DNA from: an uncultured Candidatus Saccharibacteria bacterium
GTDB lineage: Bacteria > Patescibacteriota > WWE3 > UBA101185 > UBA10185
Assembly (NCBI GenBank): GCA_964612565.1
Contig: CAZTDP010000006.1
Span: forward strand, 1-60,307
Length of the DNA stretch: 60,307 bases
Direction of reading: 5' to 3'
Position numbers and translations under genes: made by a program. Below, piece by piece: positions 8,817 to 60,307 of the stretch. The stretch's first letter is position 1, and each line of letters starts with the position of its first letter. The notes below the pieces were generated by a model. It had not been told where the DNA came from and did not search any database. It was given only the letters and a program-made list of their open reading frames with translations.

Positions 8817-9220
8817 AATGCATCACCGTGCGCTACCCGTGGCCGTGGGCAATGTTCGAGTTGCCCGAAGAGCTCGCGAAAGACGTCGAGAACCGTTCGA
8901 GGAACAGTAGCTATCGAGGACCGCTCGCGATCCACGTGAGCCTGTTCCACAAGTGGCACGACATTGAGACGGATTTGACGATTGTGGCTTTGCGTGCGCC
9001 AGGAATCGCGATGCCGACGCGCAAGCGTCTAGAATGCTCGCTCGGGTGCATCGTTGGAATGGTCGATGTCGTTGACTGCGTGCAGGACAGTCCGTCGCGG
9101 TGGGCCAACCCTGGGATGTGGCACCGCGTGCTCCGGAACCGTCGAAAGGTGCGCCCGGTTCCAATCATCGGGCGGCTCGGACTCTTTGATTGTCAGGTCG
9201 AGTTGGAGGTTGTGCCGTGA
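8813..9220 (+). CDS. ASCH-domain protein, copy 1
   Basis: ATGA overlap with the previous gene. MKCITVRYPWPWAMF..E..AKDVENRS....YRGPLAIHVS ... GCIVGMVDVVDC is typical of the ASCH/PUA-like fold. Paralogue of 10411..10818. Confidence 0.65.
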   Translation: MKCITVRYPWPWAMFELPEELAKDVENRSRNSSYRGPLAIHVSLFHKWHDIETDLTIVALRAPGIAMPTRKRLECSLGCIVGMVDVVDCVQDSPSRWANPGMWHRVLRNRRKVRPVPIIGRLGLFDCQVELEVVP

Positions 9221-9864
9221 CGCCAATGTCTTCCATGGGCGACGCGTCGCCAGGCCGGTTGCGTCCCGTGACCGCCAAGGTCGCCGCCCTCTTCGTCCAG
9301 ACGAACGGAGTCTACTTCGGTCTTCCTGGTGTCGATCCATGGGACGAGCAGCGCAACGCCAAGCGCTACCGCGGCCGAAGTCCGGTAGTCGCTCACCCGC
9401 CGTGCAACCGTTGGTGCAGGCACGCCTACCTAGTCCAGGCCGTCCACTGGTATCGCGTTGGCGAAGATGGTGGGCTGTTCGCGTTTGCCTTACGGGCACT
9501 CCGTCGTTGCGGTGGCGTGCTTGAGCATCCGGCGTGGTCGTTGGCTTGGGCAGCGCACGGGCTGATTGTTCCAGCCAAGCGCGGTTGGTCTCGCTGCATC
9601 GATGGGACCTGGGTATGCGAGGTGGCGCAGGCCGCCTACGGGCATCGGGCGCAGAAACTGACCTGGTTGGCGTACGTCGGGCGCAACCCTCCGCAACCGC
9701 TCGACTGGTCGCGCCCCCAAGCCGACGCCGTCGTGAGCGGGCTCCGTAACAACTGCGGTCGTCCGCTCTCGCAACGGGTCTGGCCAGCGGAAGCGTCACG
9801 CACTCCGGAGCGGTTCCGCGACGCGCTGATCCAGTTGTCGCGGACCTGCGGAGGTGCTCCGTGA
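9217..9864 (+). CDS. compact cytosine-C5-methyltransferase-like protein, paralogue A
   Basis: GTG 9217 (GTGA overlap) or ATG 9226. Motifs VVAHPPCNRW, GGVLEHPAWS, VAQAAYGHRAQKLTWL and EASRTPERFRDALI have the order and spacing of C5-MTase motifs IV, VI, VIII and X. No clear FxGxG motif or target-recognition domain. Paralogue of 56847..57545. Confidence 0.45.
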   Translation: MTPMSSMGDASPGRLRPVTAKVAALFVQTNGVYFGLPGVDPWDEQRNAKRYRGRSPVVAHPPCNRWCRHAYLVQAVHWYRVGEDGGLFAFALRALRRCGGVLEHPAWSLAWAAHGLIVPAKRGWSRCIDGTWVCEVAQAAYGHRAQKLTWLAYVGRNPPQPLDWSRPQADAVVSGLRNNCGRPLSQRVWPAEASRTPERFRDALIQLSRTCGGAP

Positions 9865-22299: not shown

Positions 22300-23187
22300 T
22301 CAGAACCAACGACTCGACGAGGATACAACCGTGCACTCTTGGCCAGGCTGCAGATCCGCAAGCACAAAGCAGGTCGCCTGATCTACGACGCGGAACGATT
22401 GCGTCGCTGTGTATGGGTTCTTGATGACCTTCGAGCGGTTCGCGGAGTTCGCGTCTGGCGTCGCGAGCAGGACAATACTGCCGGACGCCGACATCGTGAT
22501 CACGCTGATGTGATGGCTCGTGTGCGTGATAACCGTGGCCGTGGCATCGCCCATCGAGATCTCTTGGTGTGTGTCACGAATAGCGTCCGTGGCGAAGTAA
22601 ACGGCGCCGTTGTGCGTCTCGGTTCCGTTGTGCGTCTCGGTTCCGTTGTGCGTCTCGGCCGCATTGAACGTCGAGGTTGCCCCAACCGTCAGCGTTTGGG
22701 TCGGGCTGTTGCCTAGGGTCGTGTTACCAAGCGATGATAACCCACCTGCCGCGCCGAGTGGAGCGTAAGGGCTCAGAATGACAGTATTGCGGAATTCAAC
22801 TTCACCATTGTGCGTCTCGGCCGCATTGAACGTCGAGGTTGCGCCAACCGTCAACGTGTTAGATGGACTGGTGCCTAGTACCGTGTTTTCTAACGACGTA
22901 AGCCCACCAGCTGCGGTTACGGTCCCAACGAACCGAGCCGCATCACCGAAGTATGACTCGCAGTAGACCACGAACTCGCCGCTAGGGTCCACTGATAGCT
23001 TGGATCCAGAGAATTGCATTCCGGTTCCGCCAATAGTAATCACAGCGCTCGGGGCCCACGTGCCGCCTTCGTCGCCGTTGATGGCCGCAAACAGGTTGGC
23101 GTCGAACTTCTCGAACTCGGCAGCGCTAACGCCTGTGCCAATCGCCCATTCGGCGTAGTCTGCGCGGACTCTTGTGTTGTGAGACAT
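22300..23187 (-). CDS. tail fibre protein
   Basis: ORF track, 295 aa. Internal repeated module TLTVGATSTFNAAETHNG occurs twice. Sits downstream of the baseplate genes. Confidence 0.6.
   Translation of the reverse strand: MSHNTRVRADYAEWAIGTGVSAAEFEKFDANLFAAINGDEGGTWAPSAVITIGGTGMQFSGSKLSVDPSGEFVVYCESYFGDAARFVGTVTAAGGLTSLENTVLGTSPSNTLTVGATSTFNAAETHNGEVEFRNTVILSPYAPLGAAGGLSSLGNTTLGNSPTQTLTVGATSTFNAAETHNGTETHNGTETHNGAVYFATDAIRDTHQEISMGDATATVITHTSHHISVITMSASGSIVLLATPDANSANRSKVIKNPYTATQSFRVVDQATCFVLADLQPGQECTVVSSSSRWF
22609..22660. repeat. 18-nt tandem repeat, about 3 copies, inside the tail fibre gene
   Basis: GTTGTGCGTCTCGGTTCC occurs twice, followed by a partial third copy. Encodes ETHNGT ETHNGT ETHNGA on the - strand. 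Confidence 0.85.
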
Positions 23188-49867: not shown

Positions 49868-50494
49868 TCATATCCACCCGCCACCAAAACTCGTCTGCTC
49901 GCGCCTCGGCTGTGGCCTTCCGTATTGCGCGGCACCGATCGCGTCGTCCATATCAGCCACGCTCCTTCGTTGCTCCGCTTCACGCCTGAGATCGGCGGCC
50001 AACCTAGGCCTGTTCACCTGCATCCCGCTTGCGATCTTCTTCGCATAACGGTGCATCTTCTCCCAGTCGCGAAGGTCGTCGTCACTGCAGTGTTCCGGGG
50101 ACTGCCTGAGGTACGTCTGGGCAGTCGCTCGAGCGTCGTCGCATTGCTCGCGAGTGTCACCAAGTTTCCCGTCTAAAGCCTGCTTTCCTAGCCGAACAAG
50201 ACGAGCGCGCTCCTTCTGCCACTCGACCTCCCGATCCTGACGCTTCGCCTCCGCAATCTCGTCTCCGTGCTCGAAGATTCGCCACCATTGGGCGGCAAGT
50301 AGCGCTGCCGTGGTGCGATCTTCGATCCCCCGTAGGTCGTCCAGTGATGCTGGAGATCCTTCGCGCGGCCGCTCCGAAGGCTTTCGACGAAGCAGATGAT
50401 CGCGCCATTCAGTATCGAACGGGTAGTTCGCGTTGACCCAGCGCAACCAGCCAATGTCTGTTGTGTCGGTCGGTTTTGGTGTGTACTCGGTCAA
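49868..50494 (-). CDS. hypothetical protein (208 aa)
   Basis: TTG 50494 follows AAGGAG and forms a TTGA overlap with the upstream stop. Confidence 0.45.
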   Translation of the reverse strand: MTEYTPKPTDTTDIGWLRWVNANYPFDTEWRDHLLRRKPSERPREGSPASLDDLRGIEDRTTAALLAAQWWRIFEHGDEIAEAKRQDREVEWQKERARLVRLGKQALDGKLGDTREQCDDARATAQTYLRQSPEHCSDDDLRDWEKMHRYAKKIASGMQVNRPRLAADLRREAEQRRSVADMDDAIGAAQYGRPQPRREQTSFGGGWI

Positions 50495-51657
50495 GTTCCG
50501 CTCCTTCTTCGCTCTTCCTCCGCAAGCATCGCAGCCACCCGCGGGTTGATGTTCGTTGGTCTCATCTCTGCAGCTGAATCCAGCAGCCGTCTGAGCACCG
50601 TTTGCGACAGGCAACCGATGTCGCGTTTTCGCGCCTGATCTCTGTCGCTTCCCTTGCGCCCACAGCACCAGTCGTCGCGCGCCGCGGCCTCACAAGCGCG
50701 CAGCAACTCTTCCTCGGTCGCCACCTCGAACGCCTCGAGCAGCGCCGTCAGCGGTCTGTTCCGGTCCCCGTAACTTCCGAGCGGGCGCACCTGTAGTCCA
50801 ACCGCGCGCGCCCATGCCTCGTTGACCCTCACGAGCTCTGGTCGATCGCCGAGCGGAGCGAACGCCGCGTCGTGCTGGTTCAACCTGCAACGCTTGGCCA
50901 GCTCGCCGACAGGGCAGCTCATCAGGTCGTCAGTCGCCCGGACGCGCCTCGTCGCCAATGGCACGCATTTGGGTTCTGACGGGGGGATAGGTCTCGAGGG
51001 CTCCGAGTGCGCGGGCTGGGGTGCGTTCGGCTGTCCTTGCTCCGGCTGCGCCCCGGCGTTGGCTGGTCTCGCCTCAGACCGGACCCGAGTCACTGACGGC
51101 GGTGGCGGCGGGAGCGTAGCGCTATCGCGCTGGGTAGCTGTCAGGTCTTTAGATCCCACCTCCGGGTTAAGATCTGATCTGGTAGGAAGCAAAGAAGGGG
51201 AGTTAAGAGTGACCAAAACGGTCGGATTTTCGACATCCTTGACATCGCGTGACTCAAACGGGACGTTTCGTCCCGAATCGGTCACGTTTCGTGACGCTTT
51301 GGTCACGAAACGTGACCGCGCCCGATGTCGCTCGCGTTGCTCACGCTTGCGCTGCTGGTCGGTCATGGCGACCTCTTGGGCCTCGATGTAGTTCGGCATA
51401 ACCAGTCCACAATCCGAGAGCTCGACCACTTCGCGCTTGAGGAGCCTAGACAGGCCGGCCGCTACGATTTCAACCGGCATCCCGTTTGCGAATATCAACG
51501 CCAGGTCCTCCCCGTCGAAGACACCAGCCAGCACACCGGCTCGATCGAGCTTCCTGAGCATCAGAGCGAGGACGCATTGCCCCTCCCAACCGAGCAGCAT
51601 CCAGGTCTTGGTGTCGCGCACGTAGAGACGTGCGTAGTTCTCGTTTGCCCAATCCAT
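50491..51657 (-). CDS. replisome organiser / replication initiator-like protein
   Basis: The N-terminus MDWANENYARLYVRDTKTWMLLGWEGQCVLALMLRKLDRAG fits the phage replisome-organiser N-domain pattern. A Pro-rich linker follows. Iterons lie inside the gene. Confidence 0.5.
   Translation of the reverse strand: MDWANENYARLYVRDTKTWMLLGWEGQCVLALMLRKLDRAGVLAGVFDGEDLALIFANGMPVEIVAAGLSRLLKREVVELSDCGLVMPNYIEAQEVAMTDQQRKREQRERHRARSRFVTKASRNVTDSGRNVPFESRDVKDVENPTVLVTLNSPSLLPTRSDLNPEVGSKDLTATQRDSATLPPPPPSVTRVRSEARPANAGAQPEQGQPNAPQPAHSEPSRPIPPSEPKCVPLATRRVRATDDLMSCPVGELAKRCRLNQHDAAFAPLGDRPELVRVNEAWARAVGLQVRPLGSYGDRNRPLTALLEAFEVATEEELLRACEAAARDDWCCGRKGSDRDQARKRDIGCLSQTVLRRLLDSAAEMRPTNINPRVAAMLAEEERRRSGT
51247..51317. 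promoter_or_regulatory. candidate replication origin iterons
   Basis: Three 15-17-bp palindromes: GGGACGTTTCGTCCC (51260-51274), GTCACGTTTCGTGAC (51281-51295) and GGTCACGAAACGTGACC (51301-51317). An extra CGTGAC half-site lies at 51248-51253. An AT-richer stretch (51186-51246) is adjacent. Confidence 0.55.
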
Positions 51658-51659
51658 CG

Positions 51660-53363
51660 CTACGCCGCCGCCTTTCCCGCCAAGTACATCTGCGCCAGCG
51701 CCTTGATGTTCGCTCCGCTTGAATCGAGTACGTCGCTGCGCTCGCCCATGACTCCGTCGGACTGCGCCTTCTTGAGCCCGAGCACGTCGGAAACGATGGG
51801 GTCGCTGCCCTCTTCAGCGATTAGGAAGTACAGGAACGTCGGGTTTTGCTGCCCGTCGCGGTGGATGCGTCCGCCGCACTGATCGTGAACCCCTGGGCTC
51901 CAGTCGAGCTCGCCGAATACACCGGTGTCGCACACGCCCTGCAACCCATCGAGACCAGCACCGGAGCGCAGGGACATCACGAGTACCTTCGCGTCACCGT
52001 CGATAAATGCCGAGCGCGCTGCTTCCTTCTGTGCCGAACTCTCGCTTCCCGTGTAGAGGACCGGCTTCAGGTCCTTGAGCGCGTCCATCCACAGGTCATA
52101 GACGGCTCGGTGCCATCCCCACAGGACAACCTTCTTTCCGCTCTCGACGAGCATCCGGACGAAGGCCGCTACGTAGGGCGCCTTGGCGATCCCGGTGGCC
52201 TGCCGTACGAGACCGGAGAGCTCCTCGGACGCTTGCATCTTCTGTCCGCGCTTCTCCTCGCTGTCACCCATGATGATTCGCGCGAGTTCGCCAGCGGCGC
52301 CCTCGATTGCCTCGAGCGCCTTCGTGTTGCACTCGATTGGCATCGGGATCTTGGTCAGGGACGGGAGTTCGCGGCCTACGTCCGCGCGCGTGCGCTGCAG
52401 CATGATCCCCGTGTCACGGGCGTAGCAGCCAAACGCCTTAGGATCGGCGATCGAGTACGAGCGCGCGTTCGCCTCCTTGCACCACTCCTCGAGAAACTCC
52501 TCTTTCGTCCCGAGTCGCCCCGGCATGAGGCAGTTCGTGATGTGAAATAGCTCGTCGCCGTAGTTGTAAATCGGCGTAGCGGTGAGCCCCATTCGCCAGC
52601 GTGTGTGGCCGCTAATGTGGTCGGCGGCCTTGTATTTCGCGCTATCGGAATGACGTAGCTCCTGCGCCTCGTCGTAGATGACGGTCTTGACCATTGGCGC
52701 CAAAACGTCAGCCCATCCCGAGAGCTTGTGGTAGTTCGTGATGATGACGTCCGGGGTGTCAGGACACAGCAGCAGCTGCCCGGGCTTCGTGCGCTTCGTC
52801 ACTCGCAAGTCGTATGGGGTGCCCTTCTTGAGTACGTGGGTGCGCATCCCAGGGCAGAACCTCTGGATCTCGCGCTCCCACTGGTGGGTGAGGTGAGTCA
52901 TGGTCACCACGAGGGCGGGGCGGCATTCGGCGCGCGACAGGAGGCAGATCCCCGAGCACGTCTTGCCGAGCCCGAGGTCATCCGCGAGCAGCAGTCCGCC
53001 TTGCGCAAAGGCCATGTCCGCAGCGATCCGCTGGTAGGAGCGAGGCTGAAGGGCTAGTTTGTACTCTGACGGCGGGCGAATGCCTGACAGTAATTCGTGG
53101 ACGATGCTCTCTTGCTCTTTATGCTTCGCAGACTGCCCGGCAAGCGCTCCGCGGTCGGAATCGGTTATATCGAGCGGGTAGCGTTCCGTGAACCAGTCGA
53201 GATCCCGACACGTGTCAATCGTGTTCGTTAGCCGGATTGCCCCATGCTGCCGTCGCGAGATCTTGGGGAAGAACCGCTTCAGCCGCATCACAATATGGGG
53301 TTCGCACTCGACGACCCACGACTTGCGATCTTTTGAAAGCTTGAGAGAACCGAACGTTTTCAT
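51660..53363 (-). CDS. SNF2-family helicase
   Basis: ATG 53363. Motif I LLADDLGLGKT, motif II VIYDEAQELRH, then LTATPIYN. The C-terminal helicase lobe has ELDWSPGVHDQCGGRIHRDGQ. Confidence 0.8.
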   Translation of the reverse strand: MKTFGSLKLSKDRKSWVVECEPHIVMRLKRFFPKISRRQHGAIRLTNTIDTCRDLDWFTERYPLDITDSDRGALAGQSAKHKEQESIVHELLSGIRPPSEYKLALQPRSYQRIAADMAFAQGGLLLADDLGLGKTCSGICLLSRAECRPALVVTMTHLTHQWEREIQRFCPGMRTHVLKKGTPYDLRVTKRTKPGQLLLCPDTPDVIITNYHKLSGWADVLAPMVKTVIYDEAQELRHSDSAKYKAADHISGHTRWRMGLTATPIYNYGDELFHITNCLMPGRLGTKEEFLEEWCKEANARSYSIADPKAFGCYARDTGIMLQRTRADVGRELPSLTKIPMPIECNTKALEAIEGAAGELARIIMGDSEEKRGQKMQASEELSGLVRQATGIAKAPYVAAFVRMLVESGKKVVLWGWHRAVYDLWMDALKDLKPVLYTGSESSAQKEAARSAFIDGDAKVLVMSLRSGAGLDGLQGVCDTGVFGELDWSPGVHDQCGGRIHRDGQQNPTFLYFLIAEEGSDPIVSDVLGLKKAQSDGVMGERSDVLDSSGANIKALAQMYLAGKAAA

Positions 53364-53364
53364 G

Positions 53365-54078
53365 TCAAAACGCACTCCCGATATGTAGACCACGAACCGG
53401 CTTACCGTTGAGCGTTGGCGGTAAGTTTTGCAGAGCTGCGCGCGTGACCGAGATCAGTAGAATCTCCCTCACCTCGTCATGTTGCGCGTAGCGCGCGAGC
53501 TGACGCAGGATCTCGTTTGCTGGACACTTGACCTTCAGCTCGACGGCGATTCCATCGACGAGGAAGTCCACGCGGTCGGTTTTGGACAGTACCACCTCTC
53601 GAAGGAAGAACTCGCGCGTCGTCTTCAGCCACGATTCAAGCTGGTCCTGATACCCGTACTCATCCGAGCATGGAGAAAAGCGCAACTCTTCGCTGATGCG
53701 CTGACGGAGCATGTCGGCCGTCAGAACCTCAAACGCGCCATGTTCCTTCATCTGTCGCCGCACCGTAGGCACCAGATCGTCCGGTGAGTCACAGACGATG
53801 TGCGGGACACCGTGCTCTTTCGCCCACGACTGCCACTCGAGTTGTGCCGGAGAGAGCTCCTCTCCCGGCTTCTTCATCTCGACCCACAGATTCAGCGAGG
53901 GGACCACGAGATCGGGGGTCCCCTCGGGTGCGAGATGGATCGTGTACCCGCCGTGGAGCGCTTTGGCCAAGCCGGAGTTGAGGCGGATGATCTTCAGTTC
54001 AGGAAACGCCTTCTCGAAAAGCTCCTTCGCGCGCGACTGCAGGTCGGACTCGCGAACGCTACGGCGGGTGGGTGGCAT
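53365..54078 (-). CDS. VRR-NUC nuclease fused to a second PD-(D/E)XK-like domain
   Basis: ATG 54078 forms an ATGA overlap. The N-terminal half has ESDLQ......EGTPDLVV....LWVEMKKPGEELSPAQ..W (VRR-NUC pattern). The C-terminal half has DRVDFLVDGIAVELKVK, a D...ELK core. Confidence 0.55.
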   Translation of the reverse strand: MPPTRRSVRESDLQSRAKELFEKAFPELKIIRLNSGLAKALHGGYTIHLAPEGTPDLVVPSLNLWVEMKKPGEELSPAQLEWQSWAKEHGVPHIVCDSPDDLVPTVRRQMKEHGAFEVLTADMLRQRISEELRFSPCSDEYGYQDQLESWLKTTREFFLREVVLSKTDRVDFLVDGIAVELKVKCPANEILRQLARYAQHDEVREILLISVTRAALQNLPPTLNGKPVRGLHIGSAF

Positions 54079-54761
54079 CAGGCCGCGTCCTCCGCTGGCT
54101 CGTCCGCTTCCGCGGCAGCAGCCAACTTGAGCGGCATCAGGACGCATACCCAACGCGGCTGTTCCTCGTCATAGAGACGCGACGGTTTGTCCACCTCGAC
54201 GTAGATCGGTTGGTGCGGATCCGACGGGATGAAGAACCGTGACGACTCCGAGTCGGCCGCCTTGCACACCTTCGCAAGCAGCGAGATTACCGAGAACGAA
54301 AGCGCGATCTGGTCGGATGGAACCTCACCGGTTCTTCTGCCTGGGCGCGTCGGAAGTAGCGACGGCATATCGAACTCGAGCTGCTCGGAGACGAACCCGC
54401 TCAGGTCGATTGATGGCTTCTTGTTCCCCGTCTCGATGTCGCGGATGTCGGCGCTCAGGATGTCGAGCTTCTTGCCGACGGTGAAGATCACTTCGTCGCC
54501 CTTGGCCATGCCGCGACGGACCATCGCGAGGGCGTCGGATGAAATCTGCCAGTTGTGCTCTAGGCGCGACGCCTTTCCCTTGCCGTCCCACGCTTCGCCG
54601 TGGTTGTAGACAGCAGCGATCCCGCTGGTGGCGAAGGAAAGCAACTTACCACCACCAATCTTGACCGAGACCTTTGCCTCGTCGTCGTCCTTGCAGAACG
54701 ACAGGAGCGCCGCGATCTCGGTTGATGTTGCCTGAATTCCGATTCCGTCTGTGTATTGCAC
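54078..54761 (-). CDS. hypothetical protein (227 aa)
   Basis: GTG 54761 follows TGGAGGAAG. KLLSFATSGIAAV is faintly reminiscent of the clamp ATDG.R.A motif. No firm call. Confidence 0.5.
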   Translation of the reverse strand: MQYTDGIGIQATSTEIAALLSFCKDDDEAKVSVKIGGGKLLSFATSGIAAVYNHGEAWDGKGKASRLEHNWQISSDALAMVRRGMAKGDEVIFTVGKKLDILSADIRDIETGNKKPSIDLSGFVSEQLEFDMPSLLPTRPGRRTGEVPSDQIALSFSVISLLAKVCKAADSESSRFFIPSDPHQPIYVEVDKPSRLYDEEQPRWVCVLMPLKLAAAAEADEPAEDAA

Positions 54762-54784
54762 TATCTTCCTCCACTATTCCGCGG

Positions 54785-55333
54785 CTACGCCGCCAGTAAC
54801 TCACGCACCTTCTTTGCTCTCGGCTTGCGGTCGCAGGCCTTCTTTCGCGCTTTGTCCCAGTGCCACGGGGCGCGCCCAACGACGCCGAACCCGAAGCAGC
54901 ACAAGATCATGTCTTTGGGATACGGATCTTTCGATCCTACGAACTTGATGCGGTCCGTCAGCTCGAGCACGAACGCGTACGGCGCAACATGCTCATGGAA
55001 CCAATTCGCGCCAACGGACGCCGGCACAAGGAACAGGGTCCACCGGTTGTCGTTTCGTCGCTCCGCGCACTTGCGCGCCCACGGGGCGATGTTTGCAAAC
55101 GGCGGGTTCAGCCAGAGATTCCCCGCCAGTGCTGCCCAGTTCTGTTGTAGCGAGTTCTGACGCTCGTCGAAGAAACACCCAGTCACCCGCGTGTTTTTCG
55201 CGTCAGCGGCGAGGTCAAAGGCCAACTCGCCGAAGCGCGACTCAACGGCCTCAATGAAGTTTGCCGGCGTAGCAACGCTTTGGTTGCTCCTATGCCGGGC
55301 GAGCCCGGCGCCTGTCTTTTTTGTGTTCGTCAC
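54785..55333 (-). CDS. phage-type DNA N6-adenine methyltransferase (Dam-like)
   Basis: ATPANFIEAVESRFGELAFDLAAD...N......F.........W...GNLWLNPPFANIAPW matches the phage Dam family, including the NPPF motif. Confidence 0.7.
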   Translation of the reverse strand: MTNTKKTGAGLARHRSNQSVATPANFIEAVESRFGELAFDLAADAKNTRVTGCFFDERQNSLQQNWAALAGNLWLNPPFANIAPWARKCAERRNDNRWTLFLVPASVGANWFHEHVAPYAFVLELTDRIKFVGSKDPYPKDMILCCFGFGVVGRAPWHWDKARKKACDRKPRAKKVRELLAA

Positions 55334-55650
55334 AACTCACCATCCTTTTCGTCAATCTTCCCTGATGCTGCGTCGTTGATGCACTCCAGCGGACGAAGAA
55401 ACGGCTTCTTGATCTCGTCACCGAACCATCCGCACTTCGAAGGAACGCAACCGCGACCGATTTCTAGGTGACAGCACTGTTGCGCGAACCTGCGACGCTG
55501 GCACGTGTTCCCGAGCTGCCGCGGGTGAACTGGTGATAGCTTTTGCTCGGCGCTGCGCATTGCAGCAAGTCGCTTCAATTGCAACCTGTCGCGACCGGAA
55601 AGCTTGCCTCCGTCATCAGAATGCATGCCGAGCCTGTGGTATGTGCTCAT
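55330..55650 (-). CDS. hypothetical Cys-containing protein (106 aa)
   Basis: ORF track; ATGA overlap with the upstream gene. Confidence 0.45.
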   Translation of the reverse strand: MSTYHRLGMHSDDGGKLSGRDRLQLKRLAAMRSAEQKLSPVHPRQLGNTCQRRRFAQQCCHLEIGRGCVPSKCGWFGDEIKKPFLRPLECINDAASGKIDEKDGEL

Positions 55651-55838
55651 CGCGCCGCCCTCGCCAAATCGATAGCTGTCAGCGTCACGTATCCAAGCGG
55701 CTCGTGATCATCTTCGCTCGAGTGGCGGATACCTCGCCGGGCGCACTTCTCACGCGACAGAGGGGCCAGGTCGCGGTCGATGTCTGCTCGCGGTACCTCG
55801 AAATCGACGACGACGGGGTCGTGGGGTAGGGGTCTCAC
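55647..55838 (-). CDS. hypothetical protein (63 aa)
   Basis: GTG 55838 forms a GTGA overlap. Confidence 0.4.
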   Translation of the reverse strand: MRPLPHDPVVVDFEVPRADIDRDLAPLSREKCARRGIRHSSEDDHEPLGYVTLTAIDLARAAR

Positions 55839-56032
55839 TTCCCACCTCCCTTCGCCCTCGCGATCGCCTCATCGAGTTGCTGCGCGTAGGGCTTTCCTGA
55901 GTCGTGCTTACGCCTTGGCGTCGGCTTCGACGTACGCTTCGGTGTTGGTGCAGGGGCGCCTACTGGATGAATTCCGCCGAGCTTGCCGAAGCCATACTGG
56001 TCACGGCGGCGCAGACGTTCTGCAAGATCCAT
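55835..56032 (-). CDS. hypothetical basic protein (65 aa), start uncertain
   Basis: In-frame ATG 56032 of track ORF 55835..56233. The longer form would overlap the methyltransferase gene. Confidence 0.35.
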   Translation of the reverse strand: MDLAERLRRRDQYGFGKLGGIHPVGAPAPTPKRTSKPTPRRKHDSGKPYAQQLDEAIARAKGGGK

Positions 56033-56100
56033 GTCGGCGACTGACGATGAGCCAGCCGTGCGAGGTCCGCGACTGCGGAAGGCTTCGCTGCCGGTGCCGG

Positions 56101-56850
56101 TCACGATGCACCTCCCGTCATCGACGGCGCCGAGCGACGCAACTCGTCGAAGCACCGACCAAACACTCCAGAGCCCGGGAACAGGTCGTCGAGAGAGTCG
56201 ACGTGCGACGCGCCCAACAGCCCGAACGTCCACTGGACGACCTTCAGCGGCTTGCGCCCCATCAGGCTGCTGTCACCGCCGCGGGCGACCGCGGTCCTAA
56301 TCGCGTCGGGCACACCTGGGAACCGCTGTCGCGCCGGTACCACGATGACGCTTTCCGAGATGCAGACGATCCCGCGCCCCTTGGGCTGGCAATGCGTCTT
56401 GAGCCAGGTGCACACCCGTGGCTCGACTCCTCGAGGAACCAGCGACAGCACGTCGCGCAAGGCCTTCGGCGACGTGAAGAGGGCCCACCCGTCATACCCA
56501 CCCGTCGTCAGCTGCTCGAGCAGACGGGCGTGGTCGACCTCACCGGCGAAGGTCGGTTCGTCGCGGTAGTACTTCCGCGACATCCCTGGGAACGGTGGGT
56601 CAGCGACGCAGAGCCGCTTCGGTGTGTCGGCGAGGTCCTCCACGGCGGCGAGTCGGCGGAAGCGGTACGCGGTCTGCCGGCATCTCTTCGAGCACCACTT
56701 CTCTTGCGTCACCTCGAGGGGAGAGCGACACCATCGGCACCGTCGCTCGGCGCCGCACTCGACGACTAGAGCTGCTCCTGGCGACACCAGAGCGTCACCT
56801 CGATGGGAGAGCGACACGTCGCCGTCTACTCGAGCCGACAGCGACATCAC
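56101..56850 (-). CDS. DNA methyltransferase (N6/N4 type, DPPF motif) with N-terminal zinc ribbon
   Basis: CRWCRSPL......WCSKRCRQTAYRFRR is the zinc ribbon. Motif IV is CVADPPFPG. The C-terminus has GRKPLKVVQW...D.LDDLFPGSGV (motif I). This is the beta-class motif order. Confidence 0.65.
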   Translation of the reverse strand: MMSLSARVDGDVSLSHRGDALVSPGAALVVECGAERRCRWCRSPLEVTQEKWCSKRCRQTAYRFRRLAAVEDLADTPKRLCVADPPFPGMSRKYYRDEPTFAGEVDHARLLEQLTTGGYDGWALFTSPKALRDVLSLVPRGVEPRVCTWLKTHCQPKGRGIVCISESVIVVPARQRFPGVPDAIRTAVARGGDSSLMGRKPLKVVQWTFGLLGASHVDSLDDLFPGSGVFGRCFDELRRSAPSMTGGAS

Positions 56851-57545
56851 AGGGACACCTCCGCCCCGCAGTCGTCGCAGTTCCTTGCTAGCAAAATCAG
56901 CGCGTCGCGAAACTCAACAGGTGTCCTCGATGCTTCCTTCGCCCAAACCCGTTGTGATAGCGGCCTACCGCAGTTGTTTCGCATGCCGCTGACAACCCCT
57001 TCGCCGCGCGGTCTATCCCACCTCATTGGTGCCGGAGGATTGTTACCGACGTAGTAAAGCCACGTCGCTTTAGTTGCGCGGTGGCCGTAGGCGCTTTGTG
57101 CGACCTCGCACACCCAGCCGTTGCCACCTGGCCAGACATCGCAAGTAACCTTCGTCCAACCACAAAGGTCTGGAGCGATCAGATCGTGGGCGGCCCATGC
57201 CATTGACCAAGCTGGGTGCTCGAGCACTCCTCCGAATTCGCGAACAGCTGCGAGAGCAGACGAGAAGCAGCCACCGTCATCGCCGACGCGTAGATGCGGG
57301 TGCCTTGACGCGACCAACTTCGCGAGCCTGCACCAGCGCGCGCATGGTGGGTGCGCCACGACCGGATTGGGGCCGGAGTAGAGACGTGCGTCGCGCGCCT
57401 CATCCCATGTGTCAACGCCAGTGAGACCGAAATACGCGCCGTTGGTCTGGACGTAGAGAGCCGCGATTGGTCTGCGCGCGGCCGCCCTACAGTCGTCACA
57501 GAGCTCCGGGCGGTCGTCGGCCGCGCCTAGGACTACTTCGAGCAT
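56847..57545 (-). CDS. compact cytosine-C5-methyltransferase-like protein, paralogue B
   Basis: ATG 57545. Motifs VVAHPPCARW, GGVLEHPAWS, VAQSAYGHRATKATWLY and EASRTPVEFRDALI. Colinear with 9217..9864 on the other strand. Confidence 0.45.
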   Translation of the reverse strand: MLEVVLGAADDRPELCDDCRAAARRPIAALYVQTNGAYFGLTGVDTWDEARDARLYSGPNPVVAHPPCARWCRLAKLVASRHPHLRVGDDGGCFSSALAAVREFGGVLEHPAWSMAWAAHDLIAPDLCGWTKVTCDVWPGGNGWVCEVAQSAYGHRATKATWLYYVGNNPPAPMRWDRPRGEGVVSGMRNNCGRPLSQRVWAKEASRTPVEFRDALILLARNCDDCGAEVSL

Positions 57546-57814
57546 GGCTTCACCCCCATGTTTGCCCTGAAAACGCGGTAGAACTGGTCTCGGTGCTTCT
57601 TCGGGAGCGAGAAGCGGGCCTTCTTCAATGCCTCGCGCATCCGCTTGTTCTCGCGCAAGAGCTCTGTCGCCTCGCGGTTGAACTCTGCGAAGCGTTGCTC
57701 GTGCTCGCGGAAAAGCTTCATTTGCAATGCTTGCGTTCGCTCGCAGATGTTGATCAGGTTCTGCTGCCCTGCAATCACCTCGGCAAGTCTCGCGATTTGT
57801 TCGTCTTTGGTCAT
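57533..57814 (-). CDS. coiled-coil protein (93 aa)
   Basis: ORF track; heptad-like charged sequence. Confidence 0.55.
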   Translation of the reverse strand: MTKDEQIARLAEVIAGQQNLINICERTQALQMKLFREHEQRFAEFNREATELLRENKRMREALKKARFSLPKKHRDQFYRVFRANMGVKPCSK

Positions 57815-57817
57815 ACC

Positions 57818-58582
57818 TCACCACTCCACGTCAACCAATTCGCCGTAAGTGACCACGACGCGCTTCGGTTTCTCAAGCACGATCACGTGACCTGGTATCA
57901 CCCAGAGAGCGAATGCGGACTCAGCAAACGAGGCGAACGCCTCTAGTCGAGCGCGCTCGTCGTCGCCCACTGTCACGATCCCGGCTCGGATCGGGGCAAC
58001 GTAGAACGCGATCCACGTGGAGGCCCAGAGCGAGTCCCTGAGCGAGTCCCTGAGCGAGGCCCAGAGCGAGGCACAGAGCGAGTCACTGAGCGAGGCACAG
58101 AGCGAGTCACTGAGCGAGTCCCTGAGCGAGGCCCTGAGCGAGGCCCAGAGCGAGTCACTGAGCGAGGCCCTGAGCGAGGCCCAGAGCGAGGCCCAGAGCG
58201 AGTCCCTGAGCGAGGCCCTGAGCGAGTCACTGAGCGAGGCCCAGAGCGAGTCACTGAGCGAGTCACAGAGCGAGGCACAGAGCGAGTCCCTGAGCGAGTC
58301 CCTGAGCGAGGCCCAGAGCGAGTCACTGAGCGAGGCCCTGAGCGAGTCACTGAGCGAGTCACTGAGCGAGGCCCAGAGCGAGTCCCTGAGCGAGGTGGCC
58401 TCTTGCAACGTCGCCACAAAGTGCACCTCATACTGAACGAGAGCTGGGGCGACGATCACTGCTACGGCCTCCGCAGCCTTCTCTCGGTCTGTCTCGGTCG
58501 ATGTTGCAGCGCGGAACATTTGCTCCCGCGTCGCGGTCACAATTGCCTGCTGTTCTTCCGTTAGTGAATCAATCTTTGCCAT
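57818..58582 (-). CDS. tetrapeptide-repeat protein (about 31 x S-L-x-[DA])
   Basis: ATG 58582 ([12 protein letters not shown]...). The central 125 aa are [20 protein letters not shown] ... units, flanked by non-repeat N- and C-terminal domains. Confidence 0.65.
58031..58395. repeat. 12-nt tandem repeat array, about 31 units
   Basis: Unit GAGCGAG[GT]C[AC]C[TA]G on the + strand. All three reading frames on each strand stay open across it. Confidence 0.95.
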
Positions 58583-58598
58583 AATCACTCCACACTGT

Positions 58599-58640
58599 TC
58601 ACCCGCGCCAGGTGACCTTGATGTTGTTGTCTGCTGCCAT
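58599..58640 (-). CDS. possible 13-codon upstream ORF (MAADNNIKVTWRG)
   Basis: ATG 58640 lies 8 nt after GGTAGGAGGATAGG. The stop is 16 nt before the ATG of the repeat protein. Confidence 0.25.
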   Translation of the reverse strand: MAADNNIKVTWRG

Positions 58641-58660
58641 TGACCTATCCTCCTACCCGT

Positions 58661-58690
58661 GAGAAATCCCACACTGAACGTGTGTGGGGC
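58661..58690 (-). terminator. intrinsic terminator after the XRE / winged-helix gene pair
   Basis: The - strand reads CCCACAC-acgttca-GTGTGGG followed by ATTTCTC. Confidence 0.5.
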
Positions 58691-58765
58691 TTGCGCTTTC
58701 CGAAATCGTGTCGACGTTGCGACGCATGACGAGAGGACAGCGCCACTACCGGCACGCAAGAAGAG

Positions 58766-58999
58766 CTACTGCGTGCGCTTGTGCGCAGTCCAGATTTCGA
58801 CGCCTTGCGCGTTCTCGACACGAGACACGGCTCCGCGTTGTTCCATTGAGCCGAGCGCTCCGCCAACGTAGTCGAGCGTGAGAGCGCACTCGTGCACGAG
58901 TCCTGTCGCCGATGTTGGTCCGCTGCTGATTAGACGACGCCAGATGCGCTCGCACACGCGTCCGCGTTGCTCCTGGGTGAGTGAGGTCCAGGGCGTCAC
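58766..58999 (-). CDS. small winged-helix-like protein (77 aa)
   Basis: GTG 58999 forms a GTGA overlap with the XRE stop. ...ATGLVHECALTLDYVGGALGSMEQRGAVSRVEN..GVEIW. Confidence 0.45.
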   Translation of the reverse strand: MTPWTSLTQEQRGRVCERIWRRLISSGPTSATGLVHECALTLDYVGGALGSMEQRGAVSRVENAQGVEIWTAHKRTQ

Positions 59000-59337
59000 G
59001 CTGCGCCCTGCTCGCTGTCGGTAGATGGGACCGACGGGAGGACTGCGGCGACTACTCCGTGGGGGGTGGATTGTGCTGGATCTGCAGTATCTTGCGTGTC
59101 CGCAACGCACCCATCACCTTCCGATGCTTGTGCATTTTCGCCCTCTACCCAGTCACTCACAGACGGTGACCCACCGGTCACCTTTGCGAGCTTGGTTGCC
59201 GTACCAAGCTGAGGCTTCGACTTCCCTTGTTCGAGGCGATTGATCGTAGAAGGCTCTACGTCAACCATTCTAGCTAGTTCCGACTGCGTGATCCCCTCAC
59301 GCGCCCTGAACGCAACCAACATTTCGTTAGGTCCCAT
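58996..59337 (-). CDS. XRE-family HTH transcriptional regulator (Cro/CI-type)
   Basis: ATG 59337. MLVAFRAREGITQSELARMVDVEPSTINRLEQGKSKPQLGTATKLAKV is a classic HTH_3 pattern. No SD before the ATG. Confidence 0.7.
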   Translation of the reverse strand: MGPNEMLVAFRAREGITQSELARMVDVEPSTINRLEQGKSKPQLGTATKLAKVTGGSPSVSDWVEGENAQASEGDGCVADTQDTADPAQSTPHGVVAAVLPSVPSTDSEQGAA

Positions 59338-59347
59338 ACGAGAGGTG

Positions 59348-59376
59348 TTTATGCGCCGACGCAAAACAACGCGCAA
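59348..59376 (-). promoter_or_regulatory. candidate promoter of the XRE gene (near-leaderless)
   Basis: On the - strand: TTGCGC (59376-59371), a 17-nt spacer, then CATAAA (59353-59348). Only 10 nt separate the -10 element from the ATG. Confidence 0.35.
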
Positions 59377-59496
59377 GGAAAATCGTGCGTACGCGCAAAA
59401 CGAACTCTGGCAGGCGAACGGCAGGCATGTAAGGCGCTGTCGTTTTTTGTGCCACCTGTTTTGCGTGGGCGCACGAAAGACGTTGCGCGCGCGCAA
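59352..59496. promoter_or_regulatory. four TGCG-N4-CGCA operator-like sites
   Basis: Sites at 59352-59363, 59386-59397, 59462-59473 and 59484-59495. The last lies inside the perfect 14-bp palindrome TTGCGCGCGCGCAA (59483-59496). All sit in the divergent intergenic region. Confidence 0.45.
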
Positions 59497-59712
59497 AGGT
59501 CTGATAGCTTCGACGAGTCAGCACGGCACGCCGCGCGGACCTCGGACGGAGCAGCCGGAGGCAGGCAGCCTGGCTACTGGAAAGAACAGCGACGCGCAAC
59601 GGAAACCGCGGACAGGCACTCGCGGAACCCGAGCCTAGAGGCAGCAAGGCAACCCCCGCGGGAACACACGTAACGGTGTGGCCCGCTTTTGGGGTGTCAG
59701 CAGGAGGTCACC

Positions 59713-59949
59713 ATGCAAGGAAGACTGATCAGCTACGAGGGATTCAAGACGCTCAAAGCGGCGCGAGAGCTCGAGGGCGACGCAAGTGTCGCGAGGGCTC
59801 ACGCCGATGCGCTACGCCAGCTGAACCAGCGGCAGCGACTCGACAACTACACTCGGCGTCAGTTGCGCGAGGCAGAGCAGATCGCCGAGCGCACCTCCGA
59901 AACCTGCATCCGCGTCGCCCGCAGCTGTCGTGAGGTCGCCAATGGCTAA
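59713..59949 (+). CDS. hypothetical helical protein (78 aa), first rightward gene
   Basis: ATG 59713 follows CAGGAGG; in frame within track ORF 59689..59949. Confidence 0.55.
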
Positions 59950-60307
59950 GGTTGTGCGGTGGGACACCGGAGAGACTATCCACGAGCACGACGGGGAAAT
60001 TCGTGCCACCGTGGAGGCAGCGGCGAAGCTCGGGATATCGTGTTTCAGAGCCAGCCTCGACGGAGCCATCCTCGACGGAGCCAGCCTCGTCGGAGCCCGC
60101 CTCGACGGAGCCATCCTCGACGGAGCCAGCCTCGTCGGAGCCCGCCTCGACGGAGCCCGCCTCGACGGAGCCCGCCTCGACGGAGCCAGCCTCGACGGAG
60201 CCAGCCTCGTCAGAGCCCGCCTCGACGGAGCCAGCCTCGTCGGAGCCAGCCTCGACGGAGCCATCCTCGACGGAGCCAGCCTCGTCGGAGCCCGCCTCGA
60301 CGGAGCC
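59942..60307 (+). CDS. pentapeptide-repeat protein, N-terminal part (runs off the window end)
   Basis: ATG 59942 overlaps the previous stop (ATGGCTAA). A 36-aa leader is followed by at least 17 A-x-L-x-G units with no stop before nt 60307. Confidence 0.75.
60050..60307. repeat. 15-nt tandem coding repeat (pentapeptide array)
   Basis: Unit GCC-(AGC/CGC/ATC)-CTC-(GAC/GTC)-GGA. The same unit occupies nt 3-52. Confidence 0.95.

Follow-up and report, generated by a model that had tools for sequence, protein, structure and literature searches.

What use does a phage have for a protein whose middle consists of 31 consecutive tetrapeptides of a single pattern, and how does such an array evolve? The question is posed by a gene near one end of contig CAZTDP010000006.1 (60,307 nt, the whole of which was analysed and is called the window here), deposited in the genome bin GCA_964612565.1 of an uncultured Candidatus Saccharibacteria bacterium. 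A preliminary description, made from the letters of the sequence, had pointed to a 12-nt tandem array in a minus-strand frame, encoding about 31 units with an invariant Ser-Leu, W, R, S or C as the third residue and D or A as the fourth. We find that the encoded protein, P0001, belongs in truncated form to a very large and so far unpublished family of phage proteins; its array is typical of the family, though long. We are highly confident of this descriptive part of our explanation; to the explanation as a whole, in which the array would act as an adaptable contact surface, we give about an even chance.

A 12-nt unit is repeated 31 times in frame within a phage gene

The gene and its parts, all on the minus strand, are as follows.

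57818..58582, minus strand: tetrapeptide-repeat gene encoding P0001 (254 aa), with the ATG at 58582 and the stop codon TGA at 57818-57820
58588..58591, minus strand: Shine-Dalgarno-like GGAG 5 nt before the ATG (GGAG-N5-ATG), found by sequence inspection
58394..58582, minus strand: N-terminal segment, residues 1-63, two helices and one strand, homologous to the N domain of long DUF6745 proteins
58022..58393, minus strand: array of 31 x 12 nt in frame, residues 64-187, TCGCTC[A/T]G[G/T]G[A/C]C encoding S-L-[R/W/S/C]-[D/A]
57821..58021, minus strand: C-terminal segment, residues 188-254 (67 aa), with the WIAFY helix, a second helix and a four-strand beta unit

Tandem Repeats Finder reported a single array (58020-58394, period 12, 31.2 copies, score 477) which, when cut in the frame of the minus-strand open reading frame (ORF), gives exactly 31 units in phase and free of insertions and deletions. 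The array is thus as real as the preliminary description had it, and the residue rules given there hold in every unit. Across the 31 copies, nine of the 12 unit positions never change, and the other three are each binary: 7 (A in 19 units, T in 12), 9 (G in 19, T in 12) and 11 (A in 16, C in 15). All variants within the array are non-synonymous, and the synonymous sites are invariant. The units comprise SLWA and SLSD (eight each), SLRD (seven), SLRA (four), SLCA (three) and SLCD (one). Every third-position Trp is paired with a fourth-position Ala (P = 8e-4) and every third-position Ser with Asp (P = 2e-3), and at each of the three pairs of variable sites all four combinations are seen. A two-unit pattern has 30 matches in the array, against ~1 expected by chance in the window, and no other copy of the 12-nt unit was found anywhere in the contig.

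The ATG at 58582 matches the position where homologues begin, and the G+C content at third codon positions (GC3) of the gene is 0.73. Homologues share both flanks of the array with the minus-strand product; they confirm this frame as the translated one, and the use of some other frame, which the preliminary description had named as a possible refutation, finds no backing in them. The gene is genuine and translated, and belongs to the accessory genes of a tailed phage.

The contig is foreign to its bin. Its G+C content is 62%, in contrast to 35-43% for nearly all other contigs of the 867-kb bin (28 contigs in total; ~39% for the rest of the bin), and it is a mis-binned phage genome, so the bin is uninformative about the phage host. 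Matches to PHROG families in the window include tail sheath, baseplate wedge and hub, tape measure, major head protein, protease, portal, large terminase, helicase, exonuclease, Dam methyltransferase and an XRE-type repressor, a gene content by which the contig is a near-complete myovirus-like phage genome. The tetrapeptide gene lies in its non-structural part.

Two familiar explanations for such an array were rejected. P0001 is not a pentapeptide-repeat protein, as its period is exactly 4, not the five of A(D/N)LXX, and it has no match to PF00805; more generally, the earlier statement that the array fits no common solenoid agrees with the absence of any Pfam repeat match. Nor is the array a target of a diversity-generating retroelement: the contig holds no template copy and the toggles (A/T, G/T, A/C) are not adenine-specific. 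No reverse transcriptase was seen among the ~40 ORFs scanned, which are part of the ORFs of the window.

The array interrupts a conserved scaffold in a large phage protein family

Searches of Pfam, PHROG, PADLOC and NCBIfam with P0001 returned low-complexity matches only (DUF668, MADF, a type I specificity subunit and the SD-repeats of ClfA/Sdr). Searches of a phage collection by tblastn and megablast, with P0001 and with positions 50000-60307 of the window, gave no match, though the low-complexity filter masks the array. A word-indexed protein search with P0001 retrieved 239 relatives, all of them uncharacterised metagenomic proteins, and an exhaustive profile search found 4,519, 1,210 and 202 clusters (made at 50% identity) at E <= 1e-3, 1e-10 and 1e-30, respectively. 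All members share a stretch of ~65 residues at the N-terminus, then a tetrapeptide array, then a C-terminal part that starts with W-I-A-F-Y; the 31 units of P0001 sit directly before the ...STWIAFY motif, and homologues are laid out alike. The N-terminal domain carries a motif, LTxEQ...R..F..A.ST..DR..AE.A, that is shared with the DUF6745-related family. The best representatives divide about equally into short proteins like P0001 and proteins of 340-500 aa with PF20530 (DUF6745).

Across the family, the array has SL, SV, NL or QL cores and anything from no units to ~50 (4 to 36 in the first set, with no preferred parity), and some members carry a degenerate, non-repetitive linker in its place. 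The preliminary description had mentioned SVWDSVRDSV-type repeats in uncharacterised bacterial proteins and had proposed a search for similar arrays; such repeats do exist, and in this same family: of the 150 best representatives, 130 were newly retrieved, and 23 of these have SV cores.

Hidden Markov models (HMMs) of the flanks, built with the repeats removed, connect the short and the long forms. The short-form N-flank HMM matches all 29 long forms (E ~1e-13 to 1e-20), and the long-form N HMM matches P0001 (E 2.5e-8). The flank HMMs also tie the long forms to proteins of two named phages. In gp38 of the Mycobacterium (pro)phage prophiGD102-1, homologous flanks enclose ~46 units of Q-L-[G/R/W]-[D/G] at the same insertion point, and in gp174 of the Microcystis phage Ma-LMM01 the same flanks enclose a non-repetitive linker instead. 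An independent link of the short form to the Ma-LMM01 protein came from a Foldseek search of predicted viral structures with the short-form model (E 4e-3). In this family, a 12-nt array is inserted in frame, at a single fixed position, into a conserved scaffold (N domain plus DUF6745-type C region).

All of the homologues examined lie in early or replication regions of phages, with neighbours such as a RepA-like initiator (prophiGD102-1), DNA polymerase, UDG and holB (Ma-LMM01), and DNA polymerase III beta, helicase and methyltransferase (locus L006). A transcriptome paper on Ma-LMM01 does not mention gp174 and puts its neighbours in a broad "middle" class, and in the literature searched there was no paper mentioning DUF6745. 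A single-protein scan of genome contigs confirmed only two contigs of metagenome-assembled genomes (MAGs). As a separate observation, a 183-aa database protein (P0045, NCBI/ENA) joins a short-form C-terminal part to the beginning of the 331-aa gene that lies downstream in locus L004, and is probably a frameshift or gene-calling artefact at a 4-nt gene overlap.

P0001 lacks the distal DUF6745 region and a partner gene

Of the 215 positions in the long-form C-flank HMM, the C-terminal flank of P0001 covers only 13-68 (E 3.9e-6), so that by profile alignment it keeps only the proximal ~60 residues of the DUF6745 region. P0001 has no match to PF20530 at E <= 0.1 and does not reach the gathering score of 27 bits because the ~150 distal residues are absent; the long forms score 66-119 bits. 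The remainder of the long-form C profile, these ~150 residues, is matched by no other frame in the window. A split gene supplying the distal part was therefore rejected, since it is encoded nowhere else in this near-complete phage genome.

In all three loci checked, a small His-rich gene adjoins the long-form DUF6745 gene, either upstream or downstream. The encoded proteins share the motifs QGD...HxH...HEEHGA...Y..Q.E and have no Pfam annotation in precomputed tables.

L006, 2894-3232: His-rich partner gene
L007, 4541-4936: His-rich partner gene
L008, 2078-2449: His-rich partner gene

An HMM of the partner matches these neighbours in L006, L007 and L008 at E 1e-48 to 1e-58, and finds nothing in the whole window or in the remaining loci, including the short-form loci (best E 0.44-0.81). 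Judged by these profiles, the short form goes without both the distal domain and the partner gene. For studies of base and array together it offers the smallest construct.

Arrays turn over in whole units while the peptide motif is kept

Codon usage was analysed in 19 array segments from 14 loci. Within almost every array, unit positions 1-6 show no variation, and third codon positions usually show none either; what varies is concentrated at unit positions 7-11, in the codons of the third and fourth repeat residues. From one array to another, however, Ser is encoded by TCG or AGC, Leu by CTC or CTG and Asp by GAC or GAT. Because TCG and AGC are not interconvertible by a single synonymous step, the conserved entity is the peptide and not a DNA motif, and the codon patterns indicate protein-level selection together with concerted evolution. 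The uniformity within arrays is homogenisation by unit gain and loss: whole units come and go far faster than point substitutions accumulate, which keeps the units identical at synonymous sites, and amino-acid variation is retained at repeat positions 3 and 4 only. For the mycobacteriophage Tweety, amino-acid changes confined to variable positions were read by the authors as selection for variation (PMC2884959).

Change in copy number can be seen directly in a relative whose protein is 69% identical to P0001. Five independent MEGAHIT k141 contigs from five samples carry 29, 22, 22, 22 and 14 units between flanks of 1,900 and 2,000 nt that are 100% identical, and the length versions differ by clean in-phase block insertions or deletions. 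The internal exact repeats in these contigs are at most 99 nt long, below the k of the assembler. The expectation in the preliminary description that the array would be hypermutable in copy number is thereby borne out in this relative.

Two further observations concern arrays in databases. Contigs from IMG/VR and MAGs (L009, L012, L013, L018, L019, L020 and L021) end exactly at or inside a tetrapeptide array. Short-read assemblies thus often break at arrays, and copy numbers in databases are biased to shorter, resolvable arrays. The viral contig L011 has two family-type arrays (1-~120 and 2191-~2350) with degenerate units and synonymous variation, which suggests that they are older and possibly paralogues within one phage.

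Structure models suggest a compact base and a helical projection

An AlphaFold2 model of P0001, made from a 72-sequence alignment, had a mean predicted local distance difference test score (pLDDT) of 80.5 and a predicted template modelling score (pTM) of 0.64. Block-mean pLDDT was ~82-98 for residues 1-58 and 190-254 (89-97 in the C segment), and the array was modelled as long helices (residues 59-112, 120-165 and 168-199) with breaks at 113-119 and 166-167. In the model of the long-form P0104 (pTM 0.65), both flanks have pLDDT >90 and the array is again helical. The preliminary description, which had proposed a structure prediction, supposed that ordinary domains of ~70 and ~60 aa flank the array. 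Segments of 63 and 67 aa are indeed predicted to fold, with confidence, but they are probably two halves of one scaffold, of a truncated DUF6745 type, rather than two separate ordinary domains, as pTM values of 0.64-0.65 exceed the value for independently placed domains. From this base the array, a lower-confidence part of the models, may project as a helical hairpin, a reading that seems to us about equally balanced between right and wrong.

Foldseek searches of the PDB with the short- and long-form models gave no match at E <= 0.001. The top short-form match, the helical hairpin of the antifreeze protein Maxi (E 2.5), was set aside as a likeness of shape only. Sequence-profile searches of the PDB found nothing but the glycofibril TLP-4 core (9ikm, E 1.4e-3), which was rejected as well: it aligns only on the periodic Ser of its (TASX)n model, and the P0001 repeat has no Pro, where every 4-residue unit of the TLP-4 core calls for a dihydroxyproline and a glycosylated Ser/Thr.

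The strict 4.0-residue period poses a clean structural question. On an alpha helix it would make the Leu stripe precess by ~40 degrees per unit, unlike canonical left-handed coiled coils, and the packing may resemble small-xxx-small contacts of the kind proposed for FliH. The GxxxG/AxxxG repeats of FliH/YscL have a strict period of 4, vary in length between species and are predicted to be helical and to serve helix-helix packing (PMC2674601); like the P0001 array, they place a small residue at every fourth position. They differ in being glycine-based, numbering at most ~12, having no homogenised DNA units and belonging to a bacterial type III export protein. FliH models are matched by Tweety gp54, not by P0001.

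A tunable interaction module is the leading functional reading

The only tetrapeptide-repeat phage protein that has been studied experimentally is Tweety gp54. It is encoded with a 12-bp unit giving A-A-x-x tetrapeptides, present in 48, 26 and 15 copies in three related phages (PMC2884959), and escape mutants that gained or lost repeats overcome the Phrann gp29/gp30 defence (PMC9262239). P0001 and its family resemble it in several ways. In gp54, as in Che8 gp57 and PMC gp51, unique N and C parts surround tens of 12-bp-encoded tetrapeptides; the first two repeat residues are invariant; first and second codon positions vary and third positions do not; copy number differs between related phages; and the gene is a non-structural gene of a tailed phage. 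The repeats themselves differ, A-A-[G/W/Q]-[S/Y] in gp54 versus S-L-[R/W/S/C]-[D/A] in P0001, and the gp54 N domain has ~140 aa. Homology between the two was rejected (BLASTP E = 50, hhalign probability 0.4%, no flank-HMM match). The same design thus recurs here in an unrelated and far larger family, with at least 4,500 clusters from phages of mycobacteria, of cyanobacteria and many uncultured ones. The present case adds a short architecture without the partner, evidence from codon families that selection acts on the protein, and a clean natural example of copy-number polymorphism between identical flanks.

We propose that the N and C segments would pack as one compact base, from which the array would extend, probably as an alpha-helical hairpin of ~90 Å for 31 units. 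The invariant Ser-Leu would form the packing stripe and leave positions 3 and 4 exposed. By slippage or unequal recombination, a phage population could quickly re-tune both the length of the projection and its surface, which might be used as a rapidly adaptable contact with a host or prophage protein, for example in counter-defence. The non-structural position at the head of an operon with a Dam methyltransferase and a DPPF-motif gene, the early or replication context of the family, the rapid turnover in copy number and the exclusively non-synonymous polymorphism point to such an interaction module, and the functional analogy with Tweety gp54 makes counter-defence its most likely use. A tunable host- or prophage-interaction module, most likely for counter-defence, is our leading functional reading, albeit a tentative one. 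If it is true, the family would be a widespread device for fast adaptation in the arms race between phages and hosts.

Several points weigh against this reading. As Tweety gp54 is not homologous, the analogy rests on architecture. PADLOC gave no match to a defence or anti-defence family beyond one low-complexity match, and the searched literature holds no functional data for any family member. In the models, the array is the weakest part (block-mean pLDDT 46-86 in P0001 and <50 in P0104), and a strict 4.0-residue period does not fit canonical coiled coils. The copy-number polymorphism is that of the 69%-identical relative, not of the phage that encodes P0001, and the order of units in P0001 is no blockier than in random shuffles (P = 0.92), which means that its array bears no trace of very recent block duplication.

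A bolder version, which we regard as a long shot, is that the period-4 motif (small or polar residue, Leu/Val, variable residue, D/A) builds a regular structure not described so far, for instance a tightly wound right-handed two-helix "Ser-Leu zipper" hairpin or a non-helical solenoid, and that in thousands of phages it serves as a slippage-tuned, evolvable probe that binds or blocks host defence proteins, with the short form, free of distal DUF6745 domain and partner, as the minimal functional module of base and antenna. An obligatory modification site at the Ser was considered and is unlikely, as other members have Gln or Asn there.

Neutral growth, a molecular ruler and DNA-level roles are less likely

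The best-surviving alternative, though we think it unlikely, is that the array is a neutral, runaway microsatellite in a tolerant surface loop or helix, whose length and composition would have no function and of which selection would demand only that it stay in frame and soluble. The scaffold does work without an array in Ma-LMM01 gp174, and some members have a degenerate linker only; the range of copy numbers is wide and shows no preferred parity; and most of the residues seen at positions 3 and 4 can be reached by one mutation from TGG/NGG and GAC codons. Against it, thousands of clusters have the array at the same site and with the same residue logic (an invariant small or polar residue plus Leu/Val, then W/R/G/S, then D/A), and Ser is kept through two unconnected codon families. 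Polymorphism within arrays that is all non-synonymous, with synonymous sites invariant, is the reverse of the neutral prediction.

Should the array instead be a molecular ruler, a helical spacer would set the distance and rotation of two binding modules in a replication, recombination or modification protein. The precedent is the TAEL repeat in the HsdS subunit of type IC restriction systems (EcoR124I/II, EcoDXXI), where the target spacing moves by 1 bp with each additional 4-residue repeat and copy number changes by unequal recombination (PMC3874165). As in P0001, a 12-bp unit encodes a 4-residue helical repeat whose copy number re-tunes a property, in HsdS the length of the target spacer. 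Family members are found among replication and modification genes, P0001 itself being followed by a DPPF-motif gene, a Dam-type methyltransferase and a helicase, and PADLOC weakly matches its array to the middle part of a type I specificity subunit (E 1e-4). That match, however, is of low complexity and brings no target-recognition domains. HsdS has only 2-3 repeats, in an antiparallel coiled coil between two DNA-recognition domains; P0001 is not homologous to it, and the family-library searches found no DNA-binding or enzymatic domain in P0001. In the AlphaFold2 models the N and C segments probably come together, such that added repeats would alter the length of the projection and not the spacing of domains, and a range of 4 to ~50 units is too wide for a fixed substrate geometry. 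We consider a ruler quite improbable.

Far less credible is a DNA-level element, in which the 12-bp units would be protein-binding iterons of an origin or a packaging or recombination signal and the coding frame incidental. Perfect periodicity, invariant third codon positions and a location near a regulatory region would suit it, as would the lambda O-type precedent: phage origins may lie in the linker-coding part of initiator genes, lambda ori being inside gene O. Yet the DNA changes synonymously between lineages (TCG/AGC, CTC/CTG, GAC/GAT) with the peptide motif kept, a 12-bp period does not hold sites on one face of B-DNA, copy numbers go from 0 to ~50 and degenerate arrays retain the peptide periodicity. 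The genome has no further copy of the unit, and the RNA fold of the array is only marginally better than that of shuffles (z = -2.5).

An array made or distorted, in itself or in its 31 copies, by short-read assembly, which the preliminary description had raised as a possible refutation, is very unlikely, even though several contigs end at such arrays and this contig itself is broken within another array, of 15-nt units. No exact repeat inside the P0001 array is longer than 47 nt, and any assembler k-mer >47 (as well as ordinary read lengths) therefore fixes the unit order uniquely; the ORF is in frame with conserved flanks on both sides, and hundreds of independent assemblies show the same architecture.

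Neighbouring genes and other repeats in the phage genome

Downstream of the XRE gene and in the same orientation, the tetrapeptide gene heads a long leftward operon, which continues with a 93-aa protein, a phrog_12600 protein, the DPPF-motif protein, the Dam methyltransferase and the helicase. The features around it are as follows.

58599-58640, minus strand: 13-codon upstream ORF (MAADNNIKVTWRG) with a strong AGGAGG-type ribosome-binding site, ending 16 nt before the ATG of the tetrapeptide gene
58668-58688: upstream hairpin with a 7-bp stem and a weak U tail, a weak terminator candidate
59930-60307, continuing at 1-~272, plus strand: pentapeptide-repeat gene (PF00805, E 4e-25) with at least 21 copies of a 15-nt unit

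The preliminary description had placed the tetrapeptide gene first after a terminator and called it probably early. Its position at the head of the operon holds, but the terminator and the early timing are plausible only: the hairpin was not called by the terminator scan, and with a folding z of -1.5 it is no better than shuffles.

The 15-nt unit, GAGCC[A/C]GCCTCG[A/T]CG, encodes in-frame G-A-[S/R/I]-L-[D/V] pentapeptide repeats. Both ends of the contig carry this unit and the reading frame runs on across them, from which it follows that the genome is circular or permuted and was broken inside this second repeat gene. The pentapeptide array spans both contig ends, its copy number being a lower bound, and is followed by a unique C-terminus of ~70 aa. 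The gene is divergent from the tetrapeptide gene and ~1.3 kb away from it, with regulator genes between.

The phrog_12600 protein of the operon, two genes downstream of the tetrapeptide gene, is one of two paralogues (E ~1e-54 each) on opposite arms of the genome, at 56850-57530 (minus strand) and 9190-9864 (plus strand). In the tail region, a perfect tandem repeat of 18 nt x 2.9 (CCGTTGTGCGTCTCGGTT) lies at 22607-22658, within the ORF at 22300-23187 (minus strand).

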